This document shows, in pieces, positions 4,917 to 22,518 of a stretch of DNA of 31,259 nt. Origin of the DNA: an uncultured Halobacteriales archaeon (GTDB taxonomy: Archaea; Thermoplasmatota; E2; JACPAO01); the NCBI GenBank assembly GCA_964641035.1, contig CAZXJU010000002.1, forward strand, positions 1 to 31,259, in the 5' to 3' direction. Position 1 is the stretch's first letter, and each line of letters begins with the position of its first letter. The notes beneath the pieces are model-generated. The model ran no database searches. It was not told the origin of the DNA and worked only from the letters and a program-made list of their open reading frames with translations. The translations under genes and the position numbers were made by a program.

Positions 4917-5756
4917 CTAGCATTGGCGCAACGGTTCTCCGCGGGCAACAAAGACGGTCGTGCCGGGTTCGTCGGGAACGATGATGTATTCGACGACATC
5001 GCCCGTAAGGTTTCCGTCTCGAAGATAGTTTAGACCATTCGCGTGGGCAATTAGCCAATAGTCGTGGCTGGTGTTGAGGGATGCGGGTGGTGGGTCGAAC
5101 GTCACGAAGGGCAGGGAGACGCAACCCCAGGCGGCAGCGCTGCCGGCGTCGATTCCTTCGCCTGCGCCGGCAATGCCGAGACCTACGACGGCGAGGAGCC
5201 CGAGGACGATGTTGCCAGTTCGCCTGTTGCCCATGAGGTGGTACCACGGAGATTCTTTTTCGCGGATTTGCGCATGGAATATCACTGCAATCAGACTGGC
5301 GATCAAGGCCCAGATTACAATGTCGGCCCAGGTTATCCCAAGGCCCGGAATCCGGGGCGTTTCGTCGCCGATCGATGCCGCCGCTTGCGCACCCGCGCCA
5401 AGGCTGATGGCGGCGGCTACGGCAGGCCAGGAAAAAAGCCGGAACAGTTTTTCGTCTTCCGGCTCAGAGTTGCCGTCCTCGCCGGCCGTCTTGATTTTCC
5501 GCCACAGGGGCCGGGTTCCGGCTTCGAACGCAGGATAAAGGAGGAATAAGAACACGGGATAGAGCAGGACAGGGAAGCTGGCCATCATGAAATTCTCGAC
5601 GGACAAGCCGAGATCTTGAACATTGATCCCGAGCCGGCCGTAGTACGCGCTTTGTCGAAGAAAGCCGACGAGCGCTACGAGCACGGTGGCGGCTGCGATC
5701 GCGAGCGTCGCTGTCGCGAAGGGTCCATTGCGAGCGTCGTGGGCGTCGGCCGTCAT
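4917..5756 (-). CDS. Hypothetical multi-pass membrane protein
   Basis: 279 aa with several hydrophobic helices and an AT-rich TATA-like region at about 5778-5795. No family recognised. Confidence 0.65.
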   Translation of the reverse strand: MTADAHDARNGPFATATLAIAAATVLVALVGFLRQSAYYGRLGINVQDLGLSVENFMMASFPVLLYPVFLFLLYPAFEAGTRPLWRKIKTAGEDGNSEPEDEKLFRLFSWPAVAAAISLGAGAQAAASIGDETPRIPGLGITWADIVIWALIASLIAVIFHAQIREKESPWYHLMGNRRTGNIVLGLLAVVGLGIAGAGEGIDAGSAAAWGCVSLPFVTFDPPPASLNTSHDYWLIAHANGLNYLRDGNLTGDVVEYIIVPDEPGTTVFVARGEPLRQC

Positions 5757-6721: not shown

Positions 6722-7222
6722 TCAACAGGGTCGGATGTCGTTGAAGGTCCATGTGCCGAGGCGGACATTGGCTTCGGCGTCGTACACGGAGACGGCGACG
6801 CCGGCCGCGGTTCCATCGGCGCAGAACTCGAGGAAGTCGTTGCCCAGGATGCGCGTGGCGTCTTCGGAAGCGGCGACGCGTTGGCCGAGGAGTTGGCCGC
6901 CGGTCGCGGCGGCCGCGTCGTTGACCACGGTGGAACCGGTGCCGACGTAGAGGGCGGTCGCGGAGCCGCTTTGGATGGTGGCCTGGAGTTGGATGCGGTT
7001 CCAGTAGGCCCCGTCGACGGCGGACGCGACGACCAGGCGGTCCCGGTCCTCATCCTTGGTGAATCCGACGGCCGGTGCGGCATCTGAACGCTCGGAGGCA
7101 AGGATTTGGATAATGACGAAGGCGCCAGCGGCCAGACCGAGGACGACGGCCACGAGCAGGATGGTTGCGACGACGGCGGTCAAGCCGTCCTCGTCGGTGG
7201 CGAGATTCCAGCGGAGCGACAT
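6722..7222 (-). CDS. Archaeal type IV pilin-like protein
   Basis: MSLRWNLATDEDG|LTAVVATILLVAVVLGLAAGAF; TTATAT box about 30 nt upstream (7253-7258). Confidence 0.8.
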   Translation of the reverse strand: MSLRWNLATDEDGLTAVVATILLVAVVLGLAAGAFVIIQILASERSDAAPAVGFTKDEDRDRLVVASAVDGAYWNRIQLQATIQSGSATALYVGTGSTVVNDAAAATGGQLLGQRVAASEDATRILGNDFLEFCADGTAAGVAVSVYDAEANVRLGTWTFNDIRPC

Positions 7223-7311
7223 TGCGTATCGGCCCGGCTTCTGCCGGATGAGATATAATGGACTTCCCCATGGCGATTAAGTAGGCGTGGCGCGGGGGTG
7301 GAGACGGCCGG

Positions 7312-7815
7312 TCAGCAGGCGGCGATGTCGTTGAAGTGCCACGTTCCGAGGCGCGTGTTTGCCTCCGAGTCGAAGACGGAGACACGGACCTGGGTCGTTG
7401 TAGAATCGGCGCAAAATTCTACGTAATCCGGAGCGGAAACCGGGTGAGAGGAAGTCGCTAATTGCACCCGGCCGGCTAGCAGGTCGCCACCCGTCGCGGA
7501 CGCGTCTTCATTCATGTATGGTTCGGCGGTCCCCACATGGATGGTCGTGGCGAACCCGCCATTGTCGACGGCAGACAGCTGAATCATGTTCCAATCGGCG
7601 TCCTGGACGGCGGTCGACACAACAAGCCGATCGACCTCTTCATCCACGGTAAAGCCGACGGACGGTGCCGAATCCGCCTGCTCCTCCATTAGTAGTTTCC
7701 ATGCCAAGAAAACCCCGGTTACGATTCCGATGACGATTGCGACCAGGATGATTGTGCCCACGACGGCCGTCATCGCATCACATGATTTTCGGAAGCCGCC
7801 CTCGATTTCCGTCAC
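7312..7815 (-). CDS. Archaeal type IV pilin-like protein
   Basis: Start reassigned to GTG 7815, giving MTEIEGGFRKSCDA|MTAVVGTIILVAIVIGIVTGVF; TTTTAAA box about 37 nt upstream (7852-7859); paralog of 6722..7222. Confidence 0.75.
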   Translation of the reverse strand: MTEIEGGFRKSCDAMTAVVGTIILVAIVIGIVTGVFLAWKLLMEEQADSAPSVGFTVDEEVDRLVVSTAVQDADWNMIQLSAVDNGGFATTIHVGTAEPYMNEDASATGGDLLAGRVQLATSSHPVSAPDYVEFCADSTTTQVRVSVFDSEANTRLGTWHFNDIAAC

Positions 7816-7962
7816 GATGTACCCACAGCAAAGGGAAATTTTGGCACGGCGTTTAAAAAGATGTGTAAGTAGCCCGTTCTGAAGGTATCGCCGCCCGACA
7901 TGAAACAAGTGTCGTAACTGGCGGCGAGGGAAGGCTGCAATCCGTAACCTCTAGTCTACTTT

Positions 7963-7998: not shown

Positions 7999-8562
7999 CT
8001 ACGAGCAGTCCGCAACGTCCGTAAACGTGTACGTGTGGACGATTGCGTTGGCGGTCGTGTCCCGAATCTGGATTTCCACGTTGTCTACGGGCCCTGCGAG
8101 CGCGTCGTCAACGCAGAATTCCAGGAAGTCTCCGGCCTCAATGCGGTCAGCGGCGTCAGACACCTGTACGGCCGTACCGGTACACGACGATGCACCAACG
8201 GTACCAACATCATCGCCGGGAGCCAGGGCTGGCTTAGAGTGATGAGAACTGTCGGCTGCCGCGGAACCCAAGCTGATTGCGGATGCCGTGGTGCCGTCGT
8301 CAGCACCGCTGCAGCTGACCGCGGAAACCGTCAACCGGTTCCAATCGGCGTTCTGCCCGGCCTGGTTCACGCTCAGGCGGTCTTGCCCCTCGTCCGCGCT
8401 GAACGAGATGCTCGGCGCGGCCGAGCCCGTTTGTCCGCCGATGTCGCTTACCAGCACGAAGACGGTCGCAGCCAAGACCACCGTAATCGCCACCATCAAG
8501 ATGACGGCGATCACAGGGGAGACGGCTTCCTCCTCCGTGACAAATTTTCGGTTTGCTTTCAT
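7999..8562 (-). CDS. Archaeal type IV pilin (canonical Pilin_N/DUF1628; likely the major pilin)
   Basis: MKANRKFVTEEEA|VSPVIAVILMVAITVVLAATVFVLV matches the archaeal pilin consensus. Confidence 0.9.
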   Translation of the reverse strand: MKANRKFVTEEEAVSPVIAVILMVAITVVLAATVFVLVSDIGGQTGSAAPSISFSADEGQDRLSVNQAGQNADWNRLTVSAVSCSGADDGTTASAISLGSAAADSSHHSKPALAPGDDVGTVGASSCTGTAVQVSDAADRIEAGDFLEFCVDDALAGPVDNVEIQIRDTTANAIVHTYTFTDVADCS

Positions 8563-8740
8563 TTCTTTTTTTCCTGCCGCTGTATAGGCGGCCTTCCACC
8601 ATAATCAGGCACAGTTTATACGGCCTCCGGTAAAATTTGAAACGGCCTCGCGTACCTTCGGCCAACCTTAAATACGAAGAAATTCACCTCGGCCGGCTTT
8701 CTCGGAGATTTTAGCCCCATGTTCGACCCGCTCCCCCTTT

Positions 8741-8755
8741 TGACAAGTTTATAAC
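8741..8755 (+). promoter_or_regulatory. BRE/TATA promoter for the PQQ-propeller gene
   Basis: GACAAG-TTTATAA, with the TATA box (8748-8754) 31 nt before ATG 8786. Confidence 0.6.
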
Positions 8756-8785
8756 CAAGACGGCGGCATACCCAGTCGAACCCCG

Positions 8786-10483
8786 ATGCGCGCCCAGGCC
8801 GTCCTCCTTCTTGCACTCATGATCGCCGCGCCGCTGGCCATGGCCCAGAACGACTGGCCACAATACGGCCGCGACGCCACCCACCAAAGCGCCGTCCCCA
8901 CCAACCAGAACAGCGAATTCGAACCGTTCCTCGAACGCTGGTGGAACAACGTCTCCATCTCCGCCAAACCCGGATCCCCGGTCGCCTTCGACAACATCGT
9001 CTACGTCGGCGACGCCGACGGCAACCTCCACGCCTTCGACCGCGAAAGCGGCGGCCCCCTATGGACCGTCGAAGTCGCCGGCAACGCCGTCATCGAGGGC
9101 GCCCCCGCCGCCGGCGAAGAAGCCGTCTACGTGCTCGCCCGCACCGGCTCGATCTACGCCTTCGACCCCGACGACGGCAGCCCCGTCACCGGCTTCCCCC
9201 TCTCCACCGCCAGCCCCGCCTCCGGCTCCGTCCTCTTCCACAGCCAACAGAACCTCGTCATCGGCGCCGGCGGCGCCACCATCCGCTCCTACATCGCCGA
9301 CACCCAGGAACAGAAATGGACCTTCAGCGCCTCCGGCCTCTTCGTCGGAAACGCGACCAGCGGCATCAACTGCCCCGGCGGCACGATCGTCGGCACCCCC
9401 GTCATCTTCGAGAACCTCGTCTTCTTCGGATCCACCAACAAGTGCTTCTTCGCACTCGACAACCAAGCCTTCGGCACGATCTCCGCCACCGGCAATGCGC
9501 CGAACAAGCCACGATGGGTCTTCCAGGCCGACGACTCGATCCAAAGCTCGCCCGCCATCGACGTGCAGAACCGCCGCGTGCTCTTCGGCGACATCTCCGG
9601 CAACATGTACTCCATCAGCGTCGACAACAACGGCAAGGTCTCCACGGCCACATGGAAGTACACCGAACCGCTCGTCGGCAACCTGCCCTCCGAGTTCCGC
9701 GCCGGCGCCGCCATCGTCGACGACCGCGCGATCGTCGCCTCACGAAACGGCAAGGTCAACGCCCTGTCGTTGACCAACGGCGCCAAACTCTGGACCCAGG
9801 CAAGCGACCTCGGCGGCGAGATCGTGGGCACCCCCGCCGTCGCCGACGGCAAGATCCTCGTCGGCACCCGCACCGGCACCGCCGGCACCATGTACATGCT
9901 CAACGTCACCGACGGCGGCATCATCGACCAACGGCCCGCACTCGACAAGATCTCCGCCACCCCCATCATCCTCGGAACCCAAGGCATCTGGGCCAGCGAA
10001 GACGGCACCTTACACTCCTTCGGAGGCCAGAAACCCGCCCGCGCCGACCTCGCCGTCATCAGCCTTTCGCCGACGAGCATGATCAGCGGCCAGGCCACCA
10101 CGATCAGCGGCACGATACGAAACCAGGGCGAACTCGACGCACCCGCCACCGTCGTCTCCATCATCGTCGGCAGCCAACAGATCAGCGAGCAAAGCGTGAC
10201 GGCCCTCGCCGTGGATCAAACCGACTCCTTCAGCGTTTCCTACACGCCGTCGGCGGCCGGGAAACTCACCGTGACCGCGTTCGTCGACGCGGGCCGTCAG
10301 ATCCAGGAGAGCGACGAATCCAACAACGTACGCACCGTCGACGCGACCGTCACGAACCCGCCGCCGCCCGTCACCCAAGACCCGGCCAGCACGGAGAAGA
10401 CGCCGGCGCCCGGCGTCGCGCTCACGTTGTCGTTCCTGGCGCTTCTAGTGCTAGCCTTGGCGCGCCGACGCCGGGTCCGGTGA
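8786..10483 (+). CDS. Secreted PQQ-repeat beta-propeller + CARDB domain surface protein with C-terminal sorting-type anchor
   Basis: Signal peptide; DWPQYGRDATH N-terminal motif; repeated SP.....VYVG/A.D..G...W units; DLAVISL...IRNQGE...ESDESNN (CARDB); tail TPAPGV-TM-RRRRVR. Confidence 0.85.
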   Translation: MRAQAVLLLALMIAAPLAMAQNDWPQYGRDATHQSAVPTNQNSEFEPFLERWWNNVSISAKPGSPVAFDNIVYVGDADGNLHAFDRESGGPLWTVEVAGNAVIEGAPAAGEEAVYVLARTGSIYAFDPDDGSPVTGFPLSTASPASGSVLFHSQQNLVIGAGGATIRSYIADTQEQKWTFSASGLFVGNATSGINCPGGTIVGTPVIFENLVFFGSTNKCFFALDNQAFGTISATGNAPNKPRWVFQADDSIQSSPAIDVQNRRVLFGDISGNMYSISVDNNGKVSTATWKYTEPLVGNLPSEFRAGAAIVDDRAIVASRNGKVNALSLTNGAKLWTQASDLGGEIVGTPAVADGKILVGTRTGTAGTMYMLNVTDGGIIDQRPALDKISATPIILGTQGIWASEDGTLHSFGGQKPARADLAVISLSPTSMISGQATTISGTIRNQGELDAPATVVSIIVGSQQISEQSVTALAVDQTDSFSVSYTPSAAGKLTVTAFVDAGRQIQESDESNNVRTVDATVTNPPPPVTQDPASTEKTPAPGVALTLSFLALLVLALARRRRVR

Positions 10484-11323
10484 CACCGACTCCGAAGCAC
10501 CACCGCCGCGCGACGGCGCGACATCAAGACGTTCCGGGCAGCCGTGGCGCCTCGCGCACCCCGCGCACCGCGCCTTCGACCGGTGGTCCCGATGCGCCTC
10601 GCCCGTCCGCTCGGCCAACTGGATCCGAAGAAGCGTACGCACCAACTCGTCCTCCACCCGGTCCGAAAACGGCACCTCGAACTTCTCCTCAGGATACTCG
10701 ATGATGCCGTGCTCCGGCCGCGTGCCCGTCTCCGACTCGATGAGGTGACAGTACGCGGCCAACTGCAGGACGTGGCTGTCGTACGGCCGTTTCGGCGTCC
10801 GACCCGATTTCACCTCGACCGGCACCGGCCGGCCGTCGCGCTCGACCACGTAATCCGGCCGGCCCTCCAACGGCAACGTCTTGCTCACCAACACCTCCGG
10901 CCGGCCCGACTCGGTGTCCACGTACGCCACGTCCCCGCGCACCACGCGCGCGGACCGGCCCAACGCGTCGGCGCGGCCACGGAAGAACAAGTGGAACGCC
11001 AACAGGTACATCGCGCCCGCGCACCACAAGACCGACAAGAAGACGAGTAACCAGTAGACGCCCGTCGCCGCCTCCAAGAAGAGAAGCTCGATCCCCAGCA
11101 CCGCCGCGCCGATCGTAAGGAGCGCCAACAAGAAGGCGGTCTCGATGCTGAAGACGGCGTCGCGCTGCAACGACCCGATCCGGTCGACGCGCTCCGAGCG
11201 TTCCCGATGCGTCCGGACGCCGCCGCTGCCGCCGACGCCTTCGGTCCCCTCCTTCGCCCGCTGCCAATTGAGGGGGCAATACACGAACCGGTCGATGTCA
11301 CCGGCCGCGATCCGGTCAGACAC
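10451..11323 (-). CDS. Solo Cas4-like PD-(D/E)XK nuclease with two inserted transmembrane helices
   Basis: YCP (Cys1), GxxxH, GRPDY, EVKSG, QLAAY and C-terminal CAGCARRHGC (3 Cys). Two hydrophobic segments lie at about aa 61-83 and 89-114. No cas1/cas2 or array in the window. Confidence 0.8.
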   Translation of the reverse strand: MSDRIAAGDIDRFVYCPLNWQRAKEGTEGVGGSGGVRTHRERSERVDRIGSLQRDAVFSIETAFLLALLTIGAAVLGIELLFLEAATGVYWLLVFLSVLWCAGAMYLLAFHLFFRGRADALGRSARVVRGDVAYVDTESGRPEVLVSKTLPLEGRPDYVVERDGRPVPVEVKSGRTPKRPYDSHVLQLAAYCHLIESETGTRPEHGIIEYPEEKFEVPFSDRVEDELVRTLLRIQLAERTGEAHRDHRSKARCAGCARRHGCPERLDVAPSRGGGASESVSPDPASARQG

Positions 11324-15850: not shown

Positions 15851-16054
15851 TTATCCGAGCCTCCGCATCTTAATCGTTTCTATCACCAGCGCCAGCGCGA
15901 CCATCGCGACGGCCGTACCTGTCCATAACGCGAGATGATCGAGGCGTCCATCGAGGAAGCCTTGAAAGGCTTGGGCCGCGGCGTTGGCGCTGGCTAGGAT
16001 GGCGATCAACCAGGCCAGATGACGGTCCGCCAGTCGGACGACAGCCCTTTCCAT
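15851..16054 (-). CDS. Small two-TM protein (67 aa)
   Basis: MERAVVRLADRHLAWLIAILASANAAAQAF...LALWTGTAVAMVALALVIETIKMRRLG. Confidence 0.5.
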   Translation of the reverse strand: MERAVVRLADRHLAWLIAILASANAAAQAFQGFLDGRLDHLALWTGTAVAMVALALVIETIKMRRLG

Positions 16055-16259
16055 GCAAACCCGATTCACCGTTGACAGCAAAAGCCTCGTTGGTAACCGG
16101 GTTTGCGCGTCGGCCTCAATCCGTGTTCCTGCCGCATGCGAAGGCGAACGGCCGGATCCGTCCGGCGCAAGCTCCACCGCACGAACCCGAAGACGAAGCC
16201 GCCGCCCAAGGGGCCCCGAATCGAAAGGCTCAGGAGGCGACGACCCATCGAAGCCTCCG

Positions 16260-16880
16260 TTGGCTTCCCTCTTCACCCTCGTCGAAGCCCTCTGGCTCTT
16301 CCTGCCGGCCTACATCGCCAACATGACGCCGCCGGTCGCCGCCAAGGTCCTCCCCAAGTGGAACGCGCCGATCGACGGCGGCCGGACCCACCGCGACGGA
16401 CGGCCCGTGCTCGGGAAATCCAAGACGTGGCGCGGCCTCGTCACCGGCGCCGTCGCCGCCGCCCTCGTCGCCCTGGCCCAGAGCCTCGTGGTCCACACCG
16501 ACTGGGCGCTCTCCGACTTCGCGTACACCGCATTCGGAGACAACGTCGCCGCCCCGCTCGCCATCGGATTCGCGCTCGGATTCGGCGCCGTCGCCGGCGA
16601 CGCCATCAAATCCTACTTCAAACGCCGCACCGGCCGCCAAGGCGGCGCCCCCTGGATCCCCTTCGACCAGCTCGACTTCGTCGTCTTCGGCCTCGCCGCC
16701 GCCTTCCTCACCGCCACCCTCCTCTTTATGGCGGGCGCCACCAACCACTGGTTCCTCGACGGCTTCGTCCAGGGCGACGGCTGGATCCGCCTCCTCATCA
16801 TCGTCCTCGCCACCCCGCTTCTGCACCTCGCGGTCAACGTGATCGCGTACAAGCTCGGCTTCAAAGAGGTCCCGTGGTAG
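16260..16880 (+). CDS. carS: CDP-archaeol synthase (CDP-2,3-bis-O-geranylgeranyl-sn-glycerol synthase, DUF46)
   Basis: LPAYIAN..P, PIDGG...DGRP.LG.SKTWRG, GD..KSYFKRR.G...G.PW..FDQLDF; TTG start at 16260. Confidence 0.9.
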   Translation: MASLFTLVEALWLFLPAYIANMTPPVAAKVLPKWNAPIDGGRTHRDGRPVLGKSKTWRGLVTGAVAAALVALAQSLVVHTDWALSDFAYTAFGDNVAAPLAIGFALGFGAVAGDAIKSYFKRRTGRQGGAPWIPFDQLDFVVFGLAAAFLTATLLFMAGATNHWFLDGFVQGDGWIRLLIIVLATPLLHLAVNVIAYKLGFKEVPW

Positions 16881-16882
16881 CG

Positions 16883-17224
16883 ATGGGCGTCGATCTGTTG
16901 CGCGACGAACTCATCCGTTTCGAACGCCAAGGCGACGAGCAACCCACCAACCAGGAGCTGGAGGAATGGGCCGCGCAGGCACGCGCCAAAGGCAACGAAC
17001 TGCCCGAGCCGCCCAAGGCCCGCCGGCCGGAAGGCCCCTGCCGCCTCTGCCAGGAACGCCCCTCCGCCCACCGCTGCGTCGCCTGCGACCGCGACGCCTG
17101 CCGCGAAGACTACTGGGTGATGCTCGGCCTCTGCCGCGAATGCCTCACGGAAGAGGAACTGGCCGAGGCACGCCACCGGGAGAAAACCCCGCCCGAACTG
17201 GACATCAAGTGGGTCGAGGAGTGA
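16883..17224 (+). CDS. Zinc-finger protein (113 aa), probably co-transcribed with carS
   Basis: ATG 2 nt after the carS stop; CRLC-x8-CVAC-x4-C-x9-CREC; appears in the track only as the tail of 16103..17224. Confidence 0.8.
   Translation: MGVDLLRDELIRFERQGDEQPTNQELEEWAAQARAKGNELPEPPKARRPEGPCRLCQERPSAHRCVACDRDACREDYWVMLGLCRECLTEEELAEARHREKTPPELDIKWVEE
17080..17224 (+). repeat. 145-bp direct repeat, copy 1 (3' end of the zinc-finger gene)
   Basis: 138/145 identical to 19361..19505; both copies end at TGA. Confidence 0.95.
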
Positions 17225-17463
17225 TCGCCGCGGTGTCGTCGCGGCCACCGAAACCGGGACACTTCAGAGGACTTGCGCATAGGGACAAGCGAAGCACCAA
17301 TCCGCGCAGCCGGTTCGCCTCGGGGCACTGCCGTATGTCCTACACCGGCGCGTCCCGGCCTGGCGGCGCCCCGATTGCGTAGGGCGTAGTCAGGCCGAAA
17401 GTCGGCGTGAGACCAAGCGCCGGGATCTCGAACGGGCGCGCGGTGGTTCGGCAGGGCGAAGGG

Positions 17464-18441
17464 CTACTCGGGCGCGCCTTCCCGACCATCTCGCTTGCCA
17501 TGGGGATGCATCGCGCGCCACAAGGCAGCGGGATGGCGGTCGATGCCATCGGCCACCGGGATGTCGCCGAACAGCAGGTCAGGTTCGTGGCGCCCCCGTT
17601 CGAGTTCCAGCCCATATTTGATCTCGTCGTCGCTCCTCTCCAGCATCGCCTCGACCCGGGGAAGGACGGCAGCCTGAAGGTCCCGGGCCGTAGGAACGCC
17701 TTGCGCTCGGAGCATGGGGTGCAGGTGGGTGGCCAGGTCGTCGTCCGTCACCGCCCGAGTGTGGTCCAGGTCGACGAGGTCGAGCGTGGCGTCGTCCATA
17801 TGGCAGTGAAAAAGGAACGCGGCGCGGAGCATACGATCGTCAGGATGGACGTGCCCGTCGAAAAGGCGCGCGGCGTCGAACAGGTCCCTCGGATGGCCCC
17901 GGGCCACGAGAGCCTTGAGCTTCCCGCCGTAGACCTCCTCGGCGCGGAGCGCCGGCACGTGGGCCGCGTCGAGCTCGAACACCTCCGGCAGGTCGTGTTC
18001 CAAGAATCCGTACAATGAAAGGCGCATCAGGTAATTGATGTCGGCCCGGATGCTGTCCCGGTGACCATGGACGTTCGTGTAGCGAAATCGCAGCTTCCGG
18101 TGCGCGTGCGAGCGCGGACGCGGATCCCACTCGTACCCAAGGCTGTGCGTGAGGGCGCCGAGCTCGGCTTCGACCTCGTCGCGCTCCGCGACCATGGTGT
18201 CCCTGTCGAGGCTGCCGACGTAGTTGAGGTCCATATCGACGCTGAGGCGCGGCAGGTCGTCGTAGAAGAAGTTGATGCAGGTGCCACCCTTCAGGACGAG
18301 GCGTTCCCGGAGCCAGGGGTGTTCACCAATCCCCCGGAGCACCCTCGCAAGTCGGTACGCGCGCTCGAACTCCACGACAACGAAGCCCTCGTCACGGGCA
18401 GTGCGCTGAAGCCAGTCGGCGTCGATGTGTTCGTCAGGCAG
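17464..18441 (-). CDS. AbiEii-family nucleotidyltransferase toxin (type IV TA)
   Basis: LVLKGGTCINFFY..LPRLSVDMDL, K..AL..R..PRDLFD. The frame is open 22 codons upstream of GTG 18375, to CTG 18441, which has a GGTGA SD and overlaps the antitoxin stop. Confidence 0.88.
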   Translation of the reverse strand: MPDEHIDADWLQRTARDEGFVVVEFERAYRLARVLRGIGEHPWLRERLVLKGGTCINFFYDDLPRLSVDMDLNYVGSLDRDTMVAERDEVEAELGALTHSLGYEWDPRPRSHAHRKLRFRYTNVHGHRDSIRADINYLMRLSLYGFLEHDLPEVFELDAAHVPALRAEEVYGGKLKALVARGHPRDLFDAARLFDGHVHPDDRMLRAAFLFHCHMDDATLDLVDLDHTRAVTDDDLATHLHPMLRAQGVPTARDLQAAVLPRVEAMLERSDDEIKYGLELERGRHEPDLLFGDIPVADGIDRHPAALWRAMHPHGKRDGREGAPE

Positions 18442-19213
18442 ATCCGCTCACCGCCGGCGCGTGCGCGGGCACGATGACCTGCCAGTCGGGCTCGCTCCGC
18501 CCTCCACGGTTGGGCTTGACGCCGAAGTACGTGGTCCCCGTACCGAGCTTGGCCCTGAGTTCGCGGCGGACCGCGTCCGGCAGCCGCCAGCTGTCCGCAT
18601 TCGCGGCCACGAGGTAGCCGACCTTGCGATACAGTACCGTCTTGCCATAGATGGCGAGCAGGTCGAGCAGCCTGCCCCAATCGACGTAGGGGAAACCGCT
18701 CACGCTGGCGAGCACCTCCGGCAGGCCGCCGGCGTACTCGAGACGGTCCGCACATTGAATCAAAGCCAGCTCGCGGCACGCCACGTGGAGCGTGCCGCCG
18801 CTGCGCTTGGTGGTCGAGCGGCCCGCGTCGAGCACTTCCATGTCAATGGCGACGGGGTGGAACGCTTGGCGGTTCCACGTGAACGGGGTGAAGCGTGTGG
18901 GGGCGGCGACGTACACGGAGTGGAAGAAGGCCGACTCAGCGACGCCGTTGAGTTCGAGCGCGGTGTGGTAGGAAAAAAGGTAGGGTTCTACGACCTTGCT
19001 GGCCACGACCAGCGGGTCGGGTGAATCCGATCCGGCGCGTTCGGGGACGAGCACGTAGAGGCCTCGCCGGACGCGCTCGACGTAGCCCCGGTCCAGGAGA
19101 TACTTGACCTGCTTCCACGTGGCCTCGCGGTCCTCCCCCGTCACGGCCACAGCCTCATCCATCGTAAAGCACGCGGGTGTCTGGAAGGCCTCCACGAGGC
19201 GAGGGCGAGGCAT
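18434..19213 (-). CDS. AbiEi-family antitoxin / transcriptional regulator
   Basis: N-terminal wHTH (YLLDRGYVERVRRGLY) and LFSYHTALELNG motif; directly upstream of the AbiEii gene; ATG 19213 preferred. Confidence 0.85.
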   Translation of the reverse strand: MPRPRLVEAFQTPACFTMDEAVAVTGEDREATWKQVKYLLDRGYVERVRRGLYVLVPERAGSDSPDPLVVASKVVEPYLFSYHTALELNGVAESAFFHSVYVAAPTRFTPFTWNRQAFHPVAIDMEVLDAGRSTTKRSGGTLHVACRELALIQCADRLEYAGGLPEVLASVSGFPYVDWGRLLDLLAIYGKTVLYRKVGYLVAANADSWRLPDAVRRELRAKLGTGTTYFGVKPNRGGRSEPDWQVIVPAHAPAVSGSA

Positions 19214-19230
19214 TGTCTTCAAGCACGAGT

Positions 19231-19333
19231 AACCTCCCATGCATTTAGAGGTTTCTCTATTCAATCGATAAGAAAACTAAGGTGAGATGTTACTATCTCT
19301 TCATCAGAGAAACCTCCAACGTTTTAGGAGGTT
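19231..19333. promoter_or_regulatory. Two AACCTC-N11-GAGGTT palindromes in the abiE promoter
   Basis: Located at 19231-19253 and 19311-19333, 80 bp apart, in an AT-rich stretch. GAGGTTTCTCT (19248-19258) is also the reverse complement of AGAGAAACCTC (19306-19316). Confidence 0.6.
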
Positions 19334-19360
19334 TTTCAATTCACCCGGTAGTTGTTCACA

Positions 19361-19505
19361 CGCCTGCGACCGCGACGCGTGCCGCGAAGACTACTGGCTG
19401 ATGCTCGGCCTCTGCCGCGAATGCCTCACAGAAGAGGAACTGGCCGAGGCACGCCACCGCGAGAAGCCCCCGCCCGAACTGGACATCAAGTGGGTCGAGG
19501 ACTGA
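19361..19505 (+). pseudogene. 145-bp direct repeat, copy 2: orphan 3' fragment of the zinc-finger gene
   Basis: Encodes ACDRDACREDYWLMLGLCRECLTEEELAEARHREKPPPELDIKWVED*, without the N-terminal part of the gene. Confidence 0.9.
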
Positions 19506-19598
19506 CTTCGCCGGGAGGCCGCCTCGAACCAAAATCACCAGAAACTTTATTCTATGGTGGTTGTAATACTCATAAAATCGAATCTGTGAGAAGTATAC

Positions 19599-20867
19599 AT
19601 GCCAAATCTTCGAGAGGCGCTGGTGGAACGCAACCCGTGGTGGAAAGGCGAATTCCAGGTCGCGTACCGACCACGACGAATCTACGACCGCCTCCAGAAA
19701 TTCCAGGACCACCGCCAGATCATCGCCCTCACCGGGCTACGCCGCGTCGGAAAGACCACCCTTCTCCTCAAACTCGTCCAAGACGCCCTCGACGGCGGCA
19801 CGGAACCCCAAGCGATCCTCTACTTCGCATTCGACGAATTCCCCGACGCCGACCTCCGTGAGGTACTACGCACGTACGCCGACCTGTTCGACCGCGACCT
19901 CCGAAACGACCACCACCTCATCCTCCTCGACGAAATCCAGAAAGTCGAAGGCTGGCAAGACCAACTGAAGGCGCTCTACGACACGTACGACCACCTGAAG
20001 TTCATCGTCTCCGGCTCCGAGTCCCTCTTCATCCGACAGGGAGCGCGCGCCACCCTGGCCGGCCGCCTTTTCGAATTCCAAGTCGACCCGCTTACGTTCG
20101 CCGAGTACCTCGAATTCCGAAACATCCCGCACCAGCCGCGCAAGCTGCACGAGGCGGAGATCCGGCGCGCCTTCGAGGCGTACGTACCCACCCAAGGATT
20201 CCCGGAACTCGCCGAGACGCGCGACAAGGACGTCATCCGCAAGTACGTCCGCGAAAGCATCGTCGAGAAGCTCGTCTACCGGGACCTTCCGACGCTCCTT
20301 TCCCTCCGGCAACCCGGCGTCCTCGAATCGATCCTCAACATCCTCCTGGACGACCCAGGCCAGATCCTATACGCATCCGACCTCGCCGGCGAGCTCGGTG
20401 TCTCCCGCCAGACCGTCGCCGCGTACCTCTCGTATTTGGAGCAAGCGTTCCTCATCCGGAAACTGTACAACTACTCCACCGGCCCACGCAAGGTCGAACG
20501 CAAGCTCCGCAAGTACTACGCCACCGTCGCCTCCGTCGACCTCCTCTTCCGAGAGGACCCCGCCTCGCGGGGCCGCGCCCTCGAATGGGTCATCGTCAAC
20601 CAATTGCGCGCCGAATACTTCTGGCGCGACGCGCAAAAGAACGAGGTCGACATCGTCGTCGCCGGCGACCCACCGCTCCCAATCGAGGTCAAGTCCGGAC
20701 GCGTCCGGACGCGCGGCATCGAAGCCTTCCTCCGCACGTTCGACGCGCCCCGCGGCGTCGTCGTCACACGGGACGCGGAAGCCCACCATCAGAAAGACGG
20801 ACGCACCATCGAAACGATCCCCGCGTACAAGTACCTCCTTCGCCCACCGACAGACGACGAACGCTGA
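19599..20867 (+). CDS. ATP-binding protein, AAA_14 + DUF4143 type (COG1373-like)
   Basis: GLRRVGKTT, ILLDEIQ, VSGSES, GFPE; C-terminal NEVDIV..PIEVKSG. Confidence 0.9.
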   Translation: MPNLREALVERNPWWKGEFQVAYRPRRIYDRLQKFQDHRQIIALTGLRRVGKTTLLLKLVQDALDGGTEPQAILYFAFDEFPDADLREVLRTYADLFDRDLRNDHHLILLDEIQKVEGWQDQLKALYDTYDHLKFIVSGSESLFIRQGARATLAGRLFEFQVDPLTFAEYLEFRNIPHQPRKLHEAEIRRAFEAYVPTQGFPELAETRDKDVIRKYVRESIVEKLVYRDLPTLLSLRQPGVLESILNILLDDPGQILYASDLAGELGVSRQTVAAYLSYLEQAFLIRKLYNYSTGPRKVERKLRKYYATVASVDLLFREDPASRGRALEWVIVNQLRAEYFWRDAQKNEVDIVVAGDPPLPIEVKSGRVRTRGIEAFLRTFDAPRGVVVTRDAEAHHQKDGRTIETIPAYKYLLRPPTDDER

Positions 20868-20930
20868 TCACGCCCACGGGTTCCACGGGAACCACGACGG
20901 CACGTACGCCGCCAAGAAGTCGAAGGCGCC
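20868..20930 (-). repeat. 63-bp perfect direct repeat: orphan last 21 codons of the membrane gene 22114..22320
   Basis: Identical to 22114..22176 (GAFDFLAAYVPSWFPWNPWA*); its stop abuts the ATPase stop (TGA|TCA). Confidence 0.95.
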
Positions 20931-21076
20931 GCCCTTCGACCTGACGGCAACGACGGCGGGGCGGCCTCTAGGGTCAAACCATGTCCGGGCCGAATCCCGT
21001 GCACCGCAGGTCGAATCCGGGTTCGACCCGCGCCTGGCGGGAACGTTCATATAGGAACAAACGCCATTGTTTGCTC

Positions 21077-21457
21077 ATGGGCAATGCGTCGGCCATCCCG
21101 GACCTCAACGACAGGTACGAGTTGAACGTCGCCGTCCAGCTTCTCAACGGACCCGACCTCGACCTGGAAATCCTCGAACAACTGGTCGGGCGGCCGCGCC
21201 GGTGGAGCGAACTCCGGGACGCGCTCGGGGTGGACGCCGACATGCAATTGAACCGCAGCTTGCGGCGACTCCTCGACTTCGCGGCCATCGACAAGGTCAC
21301 CGACCATGCGAAGAAACCAGCCGTAAGCACGTACCGGCTTACACCGATCGGCGTCCACGTGTTCTACACCTTAGCCGCGGTCCGCACACCGCTGCGCGAT
21401 TACACGGAAATCGCCCGCGCCCTCAAGGAAACCGGCGGCGTCCGGACGACCGCCTGA
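21077..21457 (+). CDS. Winged-helix (HxlR/ArsR-like) regulator
   Basis: LEILEQLVGRPRRWSEL..ALG....LNRSLRRL...YRLTPIG; ATG 21077. Confidence 0.7.
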   Translation: MGNASAIPDLNDRYELNVAVQLLNGPDLDLEILEQLVGRPRRWSELRDALGVDADMQLNRSLRRLLDFAAIDKVTDHAKKPAVSTYRLTPIGVHVFYTLAAVRTPLRDYTEIARALKETGGVRTTA

Positions 21458-21471
21458 GGACGTTGGACGCG

Positions 21472-21954
21472 ATGCCACCAATCCCTGGGCTCCCGCCCGG
21501 CGCAATCGAACGGGTCCGGCCGCACCTCCAGAAAACAGTCGGGTTCATTCTTGCCGCCAGCGGCGATTGTCTGGACATCCAGGCACGCGAAGTCGATACC
21601 ATCAAGACGCGCCGGTTCCAGTCGGTGGGCCCGCACCAGTTGGAATCGCTGGAATTGCCGGAAAGTTGGATTCTTGCCGCCGTGATGTGCCCAGGCGACG
21701 ACACACGCGCCATCGCCCGGTTCACCGAGGGACTCGACGCGGGCGACCGCCAACGCATCCGGTTCTACTGGTACCCGGAGACACGCCCCGCCGACGCTCT
21801 GAAGCCGTGGCTCGCCGCAGGCCTTGGTCCAATCCAAGAAGACGACATCGACGGCTGGCAACGGTTTCACAAGCTCTTCGGCGCGCACCATTCCATCCAG
21901 GTGTTCATTGACCAAGCAGACCGTGGCCCCGCCACCGCGAAACGCGTGCGATGA
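21472..21954 (+). CDS. Hypothetical protein (160 aa), operonic with the wHTH gene
   Basis: ATG 14 nt after the wHTH stop; protein-like composition (MPPIPGLPPGAIERVRPHLQKTVGFILAASG...). No family recognised. Confidence 0.6.
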   Translation: MPPIPGLPPGAIERVRPHLQKTVGFILAASGDCLDIQAREVDTIKTRRFQSVGPHQLESLELPESWILAAVMCPGDDTRAIARFTEGLDAGDRQRIRFYWYPETRPADALKPWLAAGLGPIQEDDIDGWQRFHKLFGAHHSIQVFIDQADRGPATAKRVR

Positions 21955-21973
21955 GCGGAACTTCGGATCCTGG

Positions 21974-22019
21974 GGGAACTGGACGTGCCAAGATATCGAA
22001 CCCTGGCACTCCGGTTCCC
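21974..22019. terminator. Strong hairpin between convergent genes
   Basis: GGGAAC-TGGA-c-GTGCCA / 13-nt loop / TGGCAC-TCCG-GTTCCC: 16 bp with one bulge and one G-U pair. Confidence 0.45.
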
Positions 22020-22113
22020 ACACGTTCTGCGGGCGACGGTCAGGTAACGAAGCCCCGAAGGCACGGCGTGGCCGGGCCTCACTATCGCACCCGAAAGGAC
22101 CCGGGGCCCCGAT

Positions 22114-22320
22114 TCACGCCCACGGGTTCCACGGGAACCACGACGGCACGTACGCCGCCAAGAAGTCGAAGGCGCCCAACTGCCACGCCACGAAGACCAC
22201 GAACGCGACCGCGCCCGCCACGATCGCGAACTTGATCAGGCTCTTGATGATGAAGAAGACCACGACGATCGCGATGATCACGATGACCGTGAAGGGGACC
22301 GCCGTCTCGAGCGCAACCAT
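22114..22320 (-). CDS. Small membrane protein (68 aa); target gene of cassette B
   Basis: Two hydrophobic helices, a Trp/Pro-rich tail and a GGAG SD upstream; its last 63 bp are duplicated at 20868. Confidence 0.8.
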   Translation of the reverse strand: MVALETAVPFTVIVIIAIVVVFFIIKSLIKFAIVAGAVAFVVFVAWQLGAFDFLAAYVPSWFPWNPWA

Positions 22321-22362: not shown

Positions 22363-22518
22363 TCAACTGGTGACCGGCGGCGACTCCGGCCCGCCGCCCT
22401 TGGCGCACCGGTGACGCCCCGTCGCCTTGCAGTCCGCACAGATCTGGGCGCCGCAGACCGGACAGCCGACCAGCACGGCCATCGTGTGACATTCAACGCA
22501 CGGGCCCGGGACTTCCAT
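22363..22518 (-). CDS. Zinc-finger micro-protein (51 aa)
   Basis: MEVPGPCVECHTMAVLVGCPVCGAQICADCKATGRHRCAKGGGPESPPVTS: three CxxC plus HxC. TTTAAG box about 28 nt upstream. Absent from the ORF track. Confidence 0.75.
   Translation of the reverse strand: MEVPGPCVECHTMAVLVGCPVCGAQICADCKATGRHRCAKGGGPESPPVTS

Follow-up and report, generated by a model that had tools for sequence, protein, structure and literature searches.

Insertion with long target duplication has been described for bacterial restriction-modification systems that lack mobility genes (PMC2853133), and the term is traced to Nobusato et al. 2000, as cited in Furuta et al. 2010 (PMC2853133). In such insertions the direct repeats measure tens to hundreds of bp, are single-copy in genomes free of the insert, and sometimes lie over the 3' end of a gene; no archaeal case passed the filters of the PMC2853133 survey. 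Here we describe an archaeal locus of this kind in contig CAZXJU010000002.1 (C2) of an uncultured archaeon, where two small cassettes sit between a zinc-finger protein gene (ZnF) and a convergent gene for a 68-aa membrane protein, each cassette separating an intact host gene from a second, displaced copy of that gene's 3' end. The window analysed is the complete contig of 31,259 nt, which belongs to a metagenome-assembled genome (MAG, here G000, whose contigs carry C-numbers) of 305 contigs, 2.1 Mb and 86% completeness; the sequencing runs containing this stretch are soil metagenomes. Its CDP-archaeol synthase gene (CarS) shows the organism to be an archaeon, and the closest relatives with a name are MAGs of Thermoplasmatota and Thermoplasmata. 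Similar to the bacterial cases, each insert is a small block without a mobility gene flanked by direct repeats far longer than transposon duplications, the gene tails are single-copy in relatives without the insert, and the cargo is of a defence-type, addictive kind. Unlike the bacterial restriction-modification cases, the host is an archaeon, and its cassettes contain AbiE, a histidine kinase, a secreted protein and a winged helix-turn-helix (wHTH) pair as cargo. Here, too, every repeat stops at a stop codon, and a single slot has received two events that point towards each other. The pattern is thus known from bacteria, and the locus is a well-documented further case of it, not a new category; with it, the hosts of insertion with long target duplication come to include archaea, and the cargo goes beyond restriction-modification systems.

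Three further kinds of system invite comparison. For rhs, contact-dependent inhibition (CDI) and type VI secretion system (T6SS) effector loci, C-terminal displacement and orphan arrays have been described and ascribed to homology-facilitated illegitimate recombination (Jackson 2009; Kirchberger 2017, PMC5361080), and one-sided homologous plus illegitimate recombination has been proposed to account for displaced gene ends (PMC5361080). The present locus shares with them the order of full gene, cargo and displaced 3' fragment, as well as the proposed route, in which a homologous anchor in the gene is combined with an illegitimate join and arrays grow by successive additions without an integrase. 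However, at the rhs, CDI and T6SS loci the 3' end that comes in encodes another toxin tip, and what has been displaced matches it only in a bit of the conserved core, whereas in our case both ends are alleles, almost identical, of one ordinary small gene and only the cargo is new. Integrative elements of archaea and bacteria that enter gene 3' ends, and their derivatives without an integrase, the cis-mobilizable elements (CIMEs), likewise have direct repeats of a gene end, leave the gene intact and can pile up as cassettes; unlike these, our cassettes have no integrase in or near them, their targets, four in this genome, have no common att core, and an integrase-bearing relative was not found at this site. 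The cassettes also differ from integron gene cassettes in having no common attC-like site and no integrase nearby. Replacement and additive flexible islands occupy a fixed slot between conserved core genes and hold strain-variable cargo, mostly without mobile-element genes. In contrast to such hotspots, the slot described here has zero width, with abutting stop codons, and two of its additions left tail scars that record their making.

The features of the locus are as follows.

16883-17224, plus strand: host gene 1, intact, encoding the 113-aa Cys-rich zinc-finger protein (ZnF), with no Pfam family (from its open reading frame (ORF) and translation)
17080-17224, plus strand: tail copy A, the 145-nt end of the ZnF gene and part of the intact gene (repeat search, alignment)
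17225-19360, no strand: cassette A, 2136 nt, a self-contained AbiE toxin-antitoxin/abortive-infection module bounded by tail copies A and B
17464-18375, minus strand: AbiEii nucleotidyltransferase toxin (Pfam PF08843, 4e-29; PADLOC AbiEii, 5e-76)
18434-19264, minus strand: AbiEi antitoxin/regulator (Pfam AbiEi_4, PF13338; PADLOC AbiEi, 1e-40)
19361-19505, plus strand: tail copy B, the displaced 145-nt ZnF gene end, with its frame open and its stop kept (repeat search, alignment)
19506-20867, plus strand: ATPase block, with an AAA_14/DUF4143 gene at 19599-20867 (PADLOC PDC-S01, 3.7e-66)
20868-20930, minus strand: tail copy R1, the terminal 63 nt of the membrane gene including the stop, the remainder of the gene being absent (repeat search)
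20931-22113, no strand: cassette B, 1183 nt, with a wHTH gene and a 160-aa gene, bounded by R1 and R2
21077-21457, plus strand: HxlR-type winged-helix protein, 126 aa (Pfam HxlR, 1.3e-4, barely above the curated cut-off)
21472-21954, plus strand: 160-aa protein of an uncharacterised family, with a predicted Rossmann-like alpha/beta fold
22114-22320, minus strand: host gene 2, intact, encoding the 68-aa membrane protein; its final 63 nt (22114-22176) are tail copy R2

Repeat 1 pairs 17080-17224 with 19361-19505 (145 nt, 7 mismatches) and repeat 2 pairs 20868-20930 with 22114-22176 (63 nt, identical). An earlier, sequence-only reading of this stretch had claimed that both duplications stop exactly at a stop codon, and they do: both copies of the 145-nt repeat close at the TGA of the zinc-finger frame, both copies of the 63-nt repeat start at the TCA that is the complement of the stop of the minus-strand membrane gene, and homology between the ZnF or membrane-gene copies ends exactly there. 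Both repeats also begin sharply. Each is confined to its two sites across the 2.1-Mb genome (E values of 1e-62 and 1e-27), and the two, each longer than 30 bp, bracket inserts well below 20 kb (2136 and 1183 nt). On the far side of the cargo, tail B and R1 still have the outer neighbours that they had originally. Between them, the ATPase block occupies the slot exactly stop to stop without a long flanking repeat, and the TGA of the ATPase abuts the TCA of R1, mirroring an allele described below in which the ZnF stop abuts the membrane-gene tail. The intact host genes face into the locus (ZnF on the plus strand, the membrane gene on the minus strand), and the gene content of AbiE, ATPase, wHTH and an unknown gene was recovered by the Pfam and PADLOC searches run on all window ORFs, both as that reading had stated. 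Its placement of the wHTH and unknown genes on the minus strand was mistaken, as they lie on the plus strand and converge on the membrane gene. The AbiE genes, on the minus strand, converge on the ZnF gene, so that each cargo block in the window and the host gene with the duplicated tail are convergent. The stated lack of an integrase or transposase at the locus agrees with profile searches, which detected no integrase, resolvase or other mobility gene anywhere in the 31-kb contig (PF00589, PF00239, PF07282; Pfam, PADLOC).

A genome-wide search for further direct repeats ending at stop codons, as the sequence-only reading had proposed, was made by self-comparison and two stop-anchored tail scans of G000 and found two more tail-duplication loci, both with cargo that is not defence-type. 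On C47 (L044, 6920-10789), a UbiA-family prenyltransferase gene (6920-7933, plus strand) precedes an oppositely oriented gene for a GAF-PAS histidine kinase of 789 aa (8197-10566), beyond which about 145 nt from the end of the UbiA gene recur with their own TGA at 10789, at 83% identity and with a 6-nt in-frame indel. On C42 (L045, 3302-5683), a 163-aa gene (5192-5683, minus strand) has its final ~160 nt repeated at 88% identity with a 12-nt in-frame indel, and the interval between gene and tail copy is occupied, on the plus strand, by a gene for a secreted protein of 516 aa that has collagen-like and MopE-like motifs. A converging gene of oxidoreductase size ends about 50 nt away from the C42 tail copy. 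Scan matches on C9, C38, C51, C62 and the like were rejected as tail duplications, being tandem paralogues. The four cassettes thus have repeats of 63 to ~170 nt with identities of 100, 95, 88 and 83%, derived from four unrelated gene ends. No end motif common to the four cassettes and the ATPase block was found, nor was an attC-like site of imperfect inverted repeats.

The displaced tails have diverged in the manner of coding sequence. Tails A and B differ at 7 positions, 4 synonymous and 3 replacement; a wider tally including one codon outside repeat 1 gives 4 synonymous and 5 replacement steps and a ratio of replacement to synonymous change per site (pN/pS) of 0.34. In the three diverged tail pairs this ratio is 0.34, 0.43 and 0.40, such that synonymous exceeds replacement change per site, both indels among these pairs are in frame (6 and 12 nt), and the displaced copies are open to the stop. 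Moreover, the displaced tail B has the residues common among relatives (Leu, Pro, Asp), and it is the working copy A that has the odd ones. With small numbers, each tail pair looks like two alleles, both of which evolved as coding sequence.

To compare the slot across relatives, we used genome contigs together with Logan contigs (k=31) from four public soil runs aligned to the region. Among these runs, X1 is the probable source sample, X4 comes from an independent study, and X8 provides contig L038 (~94% identity). In G001, a genome of the same family and another genus, CarS and ZnF are followed by a converging membrane-gene homologue, with the stop codons of the two genes overlapping; beyond the membrane gene lie a small zinc-ribbon ORF and a large surface protein, matching the right flank of the window. 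In L038, the TGA of ZnF is followed immediately by the TCA of the membrane-gene tail. In L035, whose ZnF falls in the same 90% protein cluster, ZnF is followed by a 425-aa S8 peptidase, and the membrane gene begins 3 bases past the peptidase stop. L033, whose ZnF is 79% identical to that of the window, has the S8 gene plus five further genes (6.1 kb) and then the membrane-gene tail, and L034 and L036 likewise have S8 after ZnF. A single ZnF tail is present in L038, L033-L036 and G001; the membrane-gene tail is single in L035 and G001, and both L033 and L035 have a single one at the end of the slot. No tail duplication was found in the S8 alleles or in the CarS-ZnF loci of relatives. X4 has AbiE, tail B and the ATPase, but its depth over cassette B is zero. 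In X8, depth is near 0 over AbiE, tail B and the ATPase, whereas L038 and cassette-B-like DNA are present in that sample at similar depth. Given the k=31 limit of the Logan data, the X8 contig proves the absence of AbiE and the ATPase but not that of cassette B, and the X8 lineage may hold cassette B behind a second tail copy.

Across these alleles the slot has at least five different contents. Since the contents found between these two gene ends differ among relatives, the point where the convergent genes meet is, on this sequence comparison, a real and variable hotspot filled from both sides, as had been claimed. The alleles form a natural series from unfilled, through swapped, to added on one side and added on both. 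Cassette A in X4 is 93-94% identical to that of the window and cassette B in L042, from a sample of another study, is 94.4% identical, compared with 92-97% for the flanking host genes. Because the cassettes have diverged about as much as their flanks, both insertions look ancient and vertically inherited, older than the separation of these lineages, instead of recently arrived. The right flank of the window is ~97% identical to X8 and ~92% identical to X4, with the left flank about equidistant from both; these values hint at a mosaic formed by between-lineage recombination at the locus.

The account we favour, with a confidence somewhat above even, is homologous recombination anchored in a gene end combined with one illegitimate join, for which no element-encoded recombinase would be needed. 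We infer this route and the order of events; the repeats themselves, the allele variation, the absence of a recombinase from the contig and of a common end motif, and the coding-like divergence of the tails are observations. The starting state would be the unfilled slot, in which the convergent ZnF and 68-aa membrane genes have touching or overlapping stops. Most exchanges would then be clean swaps through homologous recombination in both flanking genes, leaving no scar, as for the S8 and ATPase alleles; that these blocks run from stop to stop without scars is expected of such swaps. Twice, DNA from a related lineage would have been added rather than swapped. The incoming piece would consist of a host gene end with cargo directly past its stop, and would be joined on one side by homologous recombination in that gene and on the other by an illegitimate join inside the resident gene. 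Alternatively, a circularised piece could enter by a single crossover in the tail and give the same product, namely cargo with an intact gene before it and a displaced spare tail after it. The repeat would end at the stop codon because the likeness between donor and recipient ends there and the slot begins there. Of the two mechanisms offered by the sequence-only reading, homology-driven capture is therefore the one we prefer, and a trans-acting recombinase is disfavoured by the four unrelated ends, the lack of a motif and the coding-like tails. On this account the locus shows small defence and accessory genes entering a compact archaeal genome without mobile-element machinery, and displaced tails would be molecular scars, a search for which across genomes could give both the number of such events and the lineages that acted as donors.

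We would like to note that several observations weigh against this account. No donor allele with AbiE or the wHTH pair in the slot and without a tail copy was found among the sequences compared. The pN/pS values of about 0.4 come from few differences, and a pair in which one copy is constrained and the other free would yield roughly such values. Tails A and B are mutual nearest relatives among the sampled sequences (138/145 identical positions vs at most 136/145), which fits duplication in place equally well. The closest AbiEii homologues, at ~68% identity (L040, L041), have no gene-tail repeats alongside, from which it also follows that AbiE is not itself the bringer of the repeats. Cargo converges on the host gene in 4 of 4 cassettes, an arrangement with a chance of about 1 in 8 that the proposed route does not predict. 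Finally, the 63-nt repeat exceeds the k=55 of the MAG assembler, so that the arrangement around cassette B rests on that assembler's read-pair resolution, and at k=31 the Logan contigs look the same whether the cassette is integrated or exists as a circle next to a slot that is unfilled.

An in-place duplication of the target, through widely staggered breaks or replication-based repair and with later divergence of the copies within the same genome, is in our view unlikely, at roughly the weight one would give to an outside chance. It would accommodate the identity of the two 63-nt copies and the close relationship of tails A and B just mentioned, the four repeat identities could simply reflect age, and the class to which the bacterial cases belong has no established mechanism. 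However, copies left to drift after duplication would not readily explain displaced frames that are open to the stop, indels that stay in frame, or the excess of synonymous change per site, nor why the spare tail B and not the working copy has the residues usual among relatives. Nor does it give a reason for the repeats to end at the stop codon, except that the slot starts there.

We regard as still less probable, and quite doubtful, that a tyrosine recombinase acted in trans or that the cassettes are CIME-like remnants without an integrase, in which case the tails would be attL and attR and the att site would have restored the gene end. Integration into a 3' end with that end restored is the classical signature of an integrase. 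A search for tyrosine recombinases elsewhere in the genome, as the sequence-only reading had proposed, gave just two matches in G000, none of them in this contig: a strong one on C13 is probably of Xer type, and a second, non-Xer-like one at C277:1102-2160 (L031) scores 62 bits to PF00589 and runs off the end of a 2.2-kb contig. The MAG is just 86% complete, and within it no serine recombinase or TnpB was found. On the other hand, four unrelated gene ends without a common core or end motif would call for several recombinases or a very loose one, and the non-coding margins of the cassettes, at 96-240 nt, are too short for integrase remnants. None of the seven slot alleles from relatives contains an integrase, and the ATPase and S8 blocks occupy the slot without any repeats.

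A similarly small likelihood attaches to a bolder proposal, a recombinase-free cassette system in archaea in which recombination between the tails frees a circle of cargo plus one gene end, the latter serving as a homologous address for re-insertion into any relative with the conserved gene. If this were true, convergent core-gene ends would act like integron attachment sites without an integrase, and the four cases in a 2.1-Mb genome would be its footprint.

That the arrangement is an assembly artefact, with alternative alleles of co-occurring strains threaded into one contig, is very improbable. The concern arises from a soil MAG in 305 contigs with scaffold artefacts: 55-nt overlaps beside 100-N gaps in many contigs are the mark of a k=55 scaffolder, the 63-nt repeat is longer than this k, and a contig of the probable source sample, described below, skips cassette B. 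Identical 55-nt stretches flank 100-N gaps at more than 20 places in G000 (e.g. C3:25367-25576); these paired stretches are unmerged scaffold joins that mimic direct repeats at 155-nt spacing. For repeat 1, the longest exact run common to tails A and B is 34 nt, shorter than k=55, so that no 55-mer could have misjoined them and the repeat needs no resolution by the assembler. Real molecules must contain the points at which cargo meets a truncated gene end. X4 contigs (~93-97%) cover ZnF to tail A, tail A to AbiEii, AbiEi to tail B, and tail B through the ATPase to the membrane-gene tail; because they cross the junction of the cassette and tail B, repeat 1 and the gene order across cassette A are independently reproduced at ~94% identity in a separate study. 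The suspicion of artefactual repeats, raised as a possible refutation of the sequence-only reading, is in this way answered for repeat 1, whereas repeat 2 rests mainly on the MAG assembly.

For cassette B, a Logan contig of the probable source sample (L037, from X1) joins the ATPase straight to the membrane gene (joint 20867|22114), with cassette B separate. We considered this joint as an empty site or an excision product and rejected it as such, because a repeat of 63 nt is beyond the resolution of a k=31 graph; an integrated cassette would yield the same contigs, and the joint speaks neither for nor against excision. Depth over cassette B in X1 equals that of its flanks (6.9 vs 6.6), and in L042 cassette B adjoins a membrane-gene tail. 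A 1.2-kb circle without a replication gene is unlikely to persist across the divergence between these samples, and cassette B is therefore probably integrated as assembled. The chimeric ORF across the joint of R1 and cassette B has no record in other assemblies and so gives no independent check.

As for the cargo, AbiEi and AbiEii lie on the same strand, 58 nt apart, in an operon arrangement (PF13338 and PF08843), and AbiE, a system of the type IV toxin-antitoxin or abortive-infection class, is here, by its profile matches, a complete two-gene module. In the region of the AbiEi start and promoter (19247-19338, no strand; DNA search and sequence reading), a 12-nt motif occurs at 19247-19258 on the plus strand and in inverted orientation at 19306-19317 on the minus strand, with a third, related copy read from the sequence; this inverted motif is possibly an operator. 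In X4, the 115 nt between the ZnF stop and the AbiEii stop (window 17267-17383), within the non-coding margin of cassette A, are replaced by 114 unrelated letters, with both sides of the swapped segment still ~90-94% identical. The match of the ATPase to PDC-S01 places it in a candidate defence family, and the GC content of its block is 0.617 vs 0.645-0.67 in the other four cassettes measured.

The 160-aa protein of cassette B belongs to a family of 83 representative clusters among 1.8 billion proteins. Its AlphaFold model, with a pLDDT of 95, predicts the Rossmann-like domain, and a fold search with it retrieved only generic Rossmann, SIS and CheY-like matches, none above a TM score of 0.5. 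Conserved positions are Cys33, Arg47, Trp66, Cys73, Gly75-Asp76 and Arg95. Five paralogues with 22-38% identity occur in G000 (C65:5181-5994, C76:1407-2185, C207:270-1028, C55:6248-6727 and C301:232-660), three of them beside a detectable wHTH gene, and a homologous wHTH/160-aa pair lies 1.2 kb upstream of CarS in G002. The pair forms a multi-copy two-gene module that resembles toxin-antitoxin or defence pairs and may be an undescribed one. With AbiE, the PDC-S01-type ATPase and the six-copy wHTH/160-aa module, the slot has the marks of a small defence islet, in a soil lineage about which little is known. Elsewhere in the genome, C7 has 449-nt direct repeats at 569-1017 and 21363-21799 (91% identity, 20.8 kb apart) with a second, 70-nt pair nearby, which may perhaps bracket a larger island.

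Further searches added little. NCBIfam gave zero matches for seven proteins searched; a promoter and terminator scan was uninformative, its consensus patterns being bacterial; the zinc-finger protein retrieved a single short and unrelated match from JGI metagenomes; and CarS retrieved only distant relatives from genome contigs, the best at 43% in a Thermoplasmatota MAG.

The neighbourhood of the slot is conserved on both sides.

16053-16880, plus strand: CarS, CDP-archaeol synthase (Pfam CarS-like, 6e-33), the conserved upstream neighbour of the ZnF gene
22363-22518, minus strand: small zinc-ribbon ORF, upstream of the membrane gene in the conserved right flank (ORF; a similar Cys-rich ORF stands at the same place in G001)

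ZnF homologues occur in 28 of the 41 genomes searched (G000 included), and a ZnF homologue adjoins CarS in all five of the relatives' loci examined. The CarS-ZnF pair, 2 nt apart in the window, is kept across several families of the class (relatives L025-L029 and L033-L036), and membrane-gene homologues converge on the ZnF gene in G001 and L035. The ZnF protein, for which Pfam has no family, may have a link to lipid synthesis. In L033, at 281-2876, a Cas4-like nuclease and another AAA_14/DUF4143 ATPase lie directly upstream of CarS, so that this ATPase family recurs on either side of the CarS-ZnF pair.

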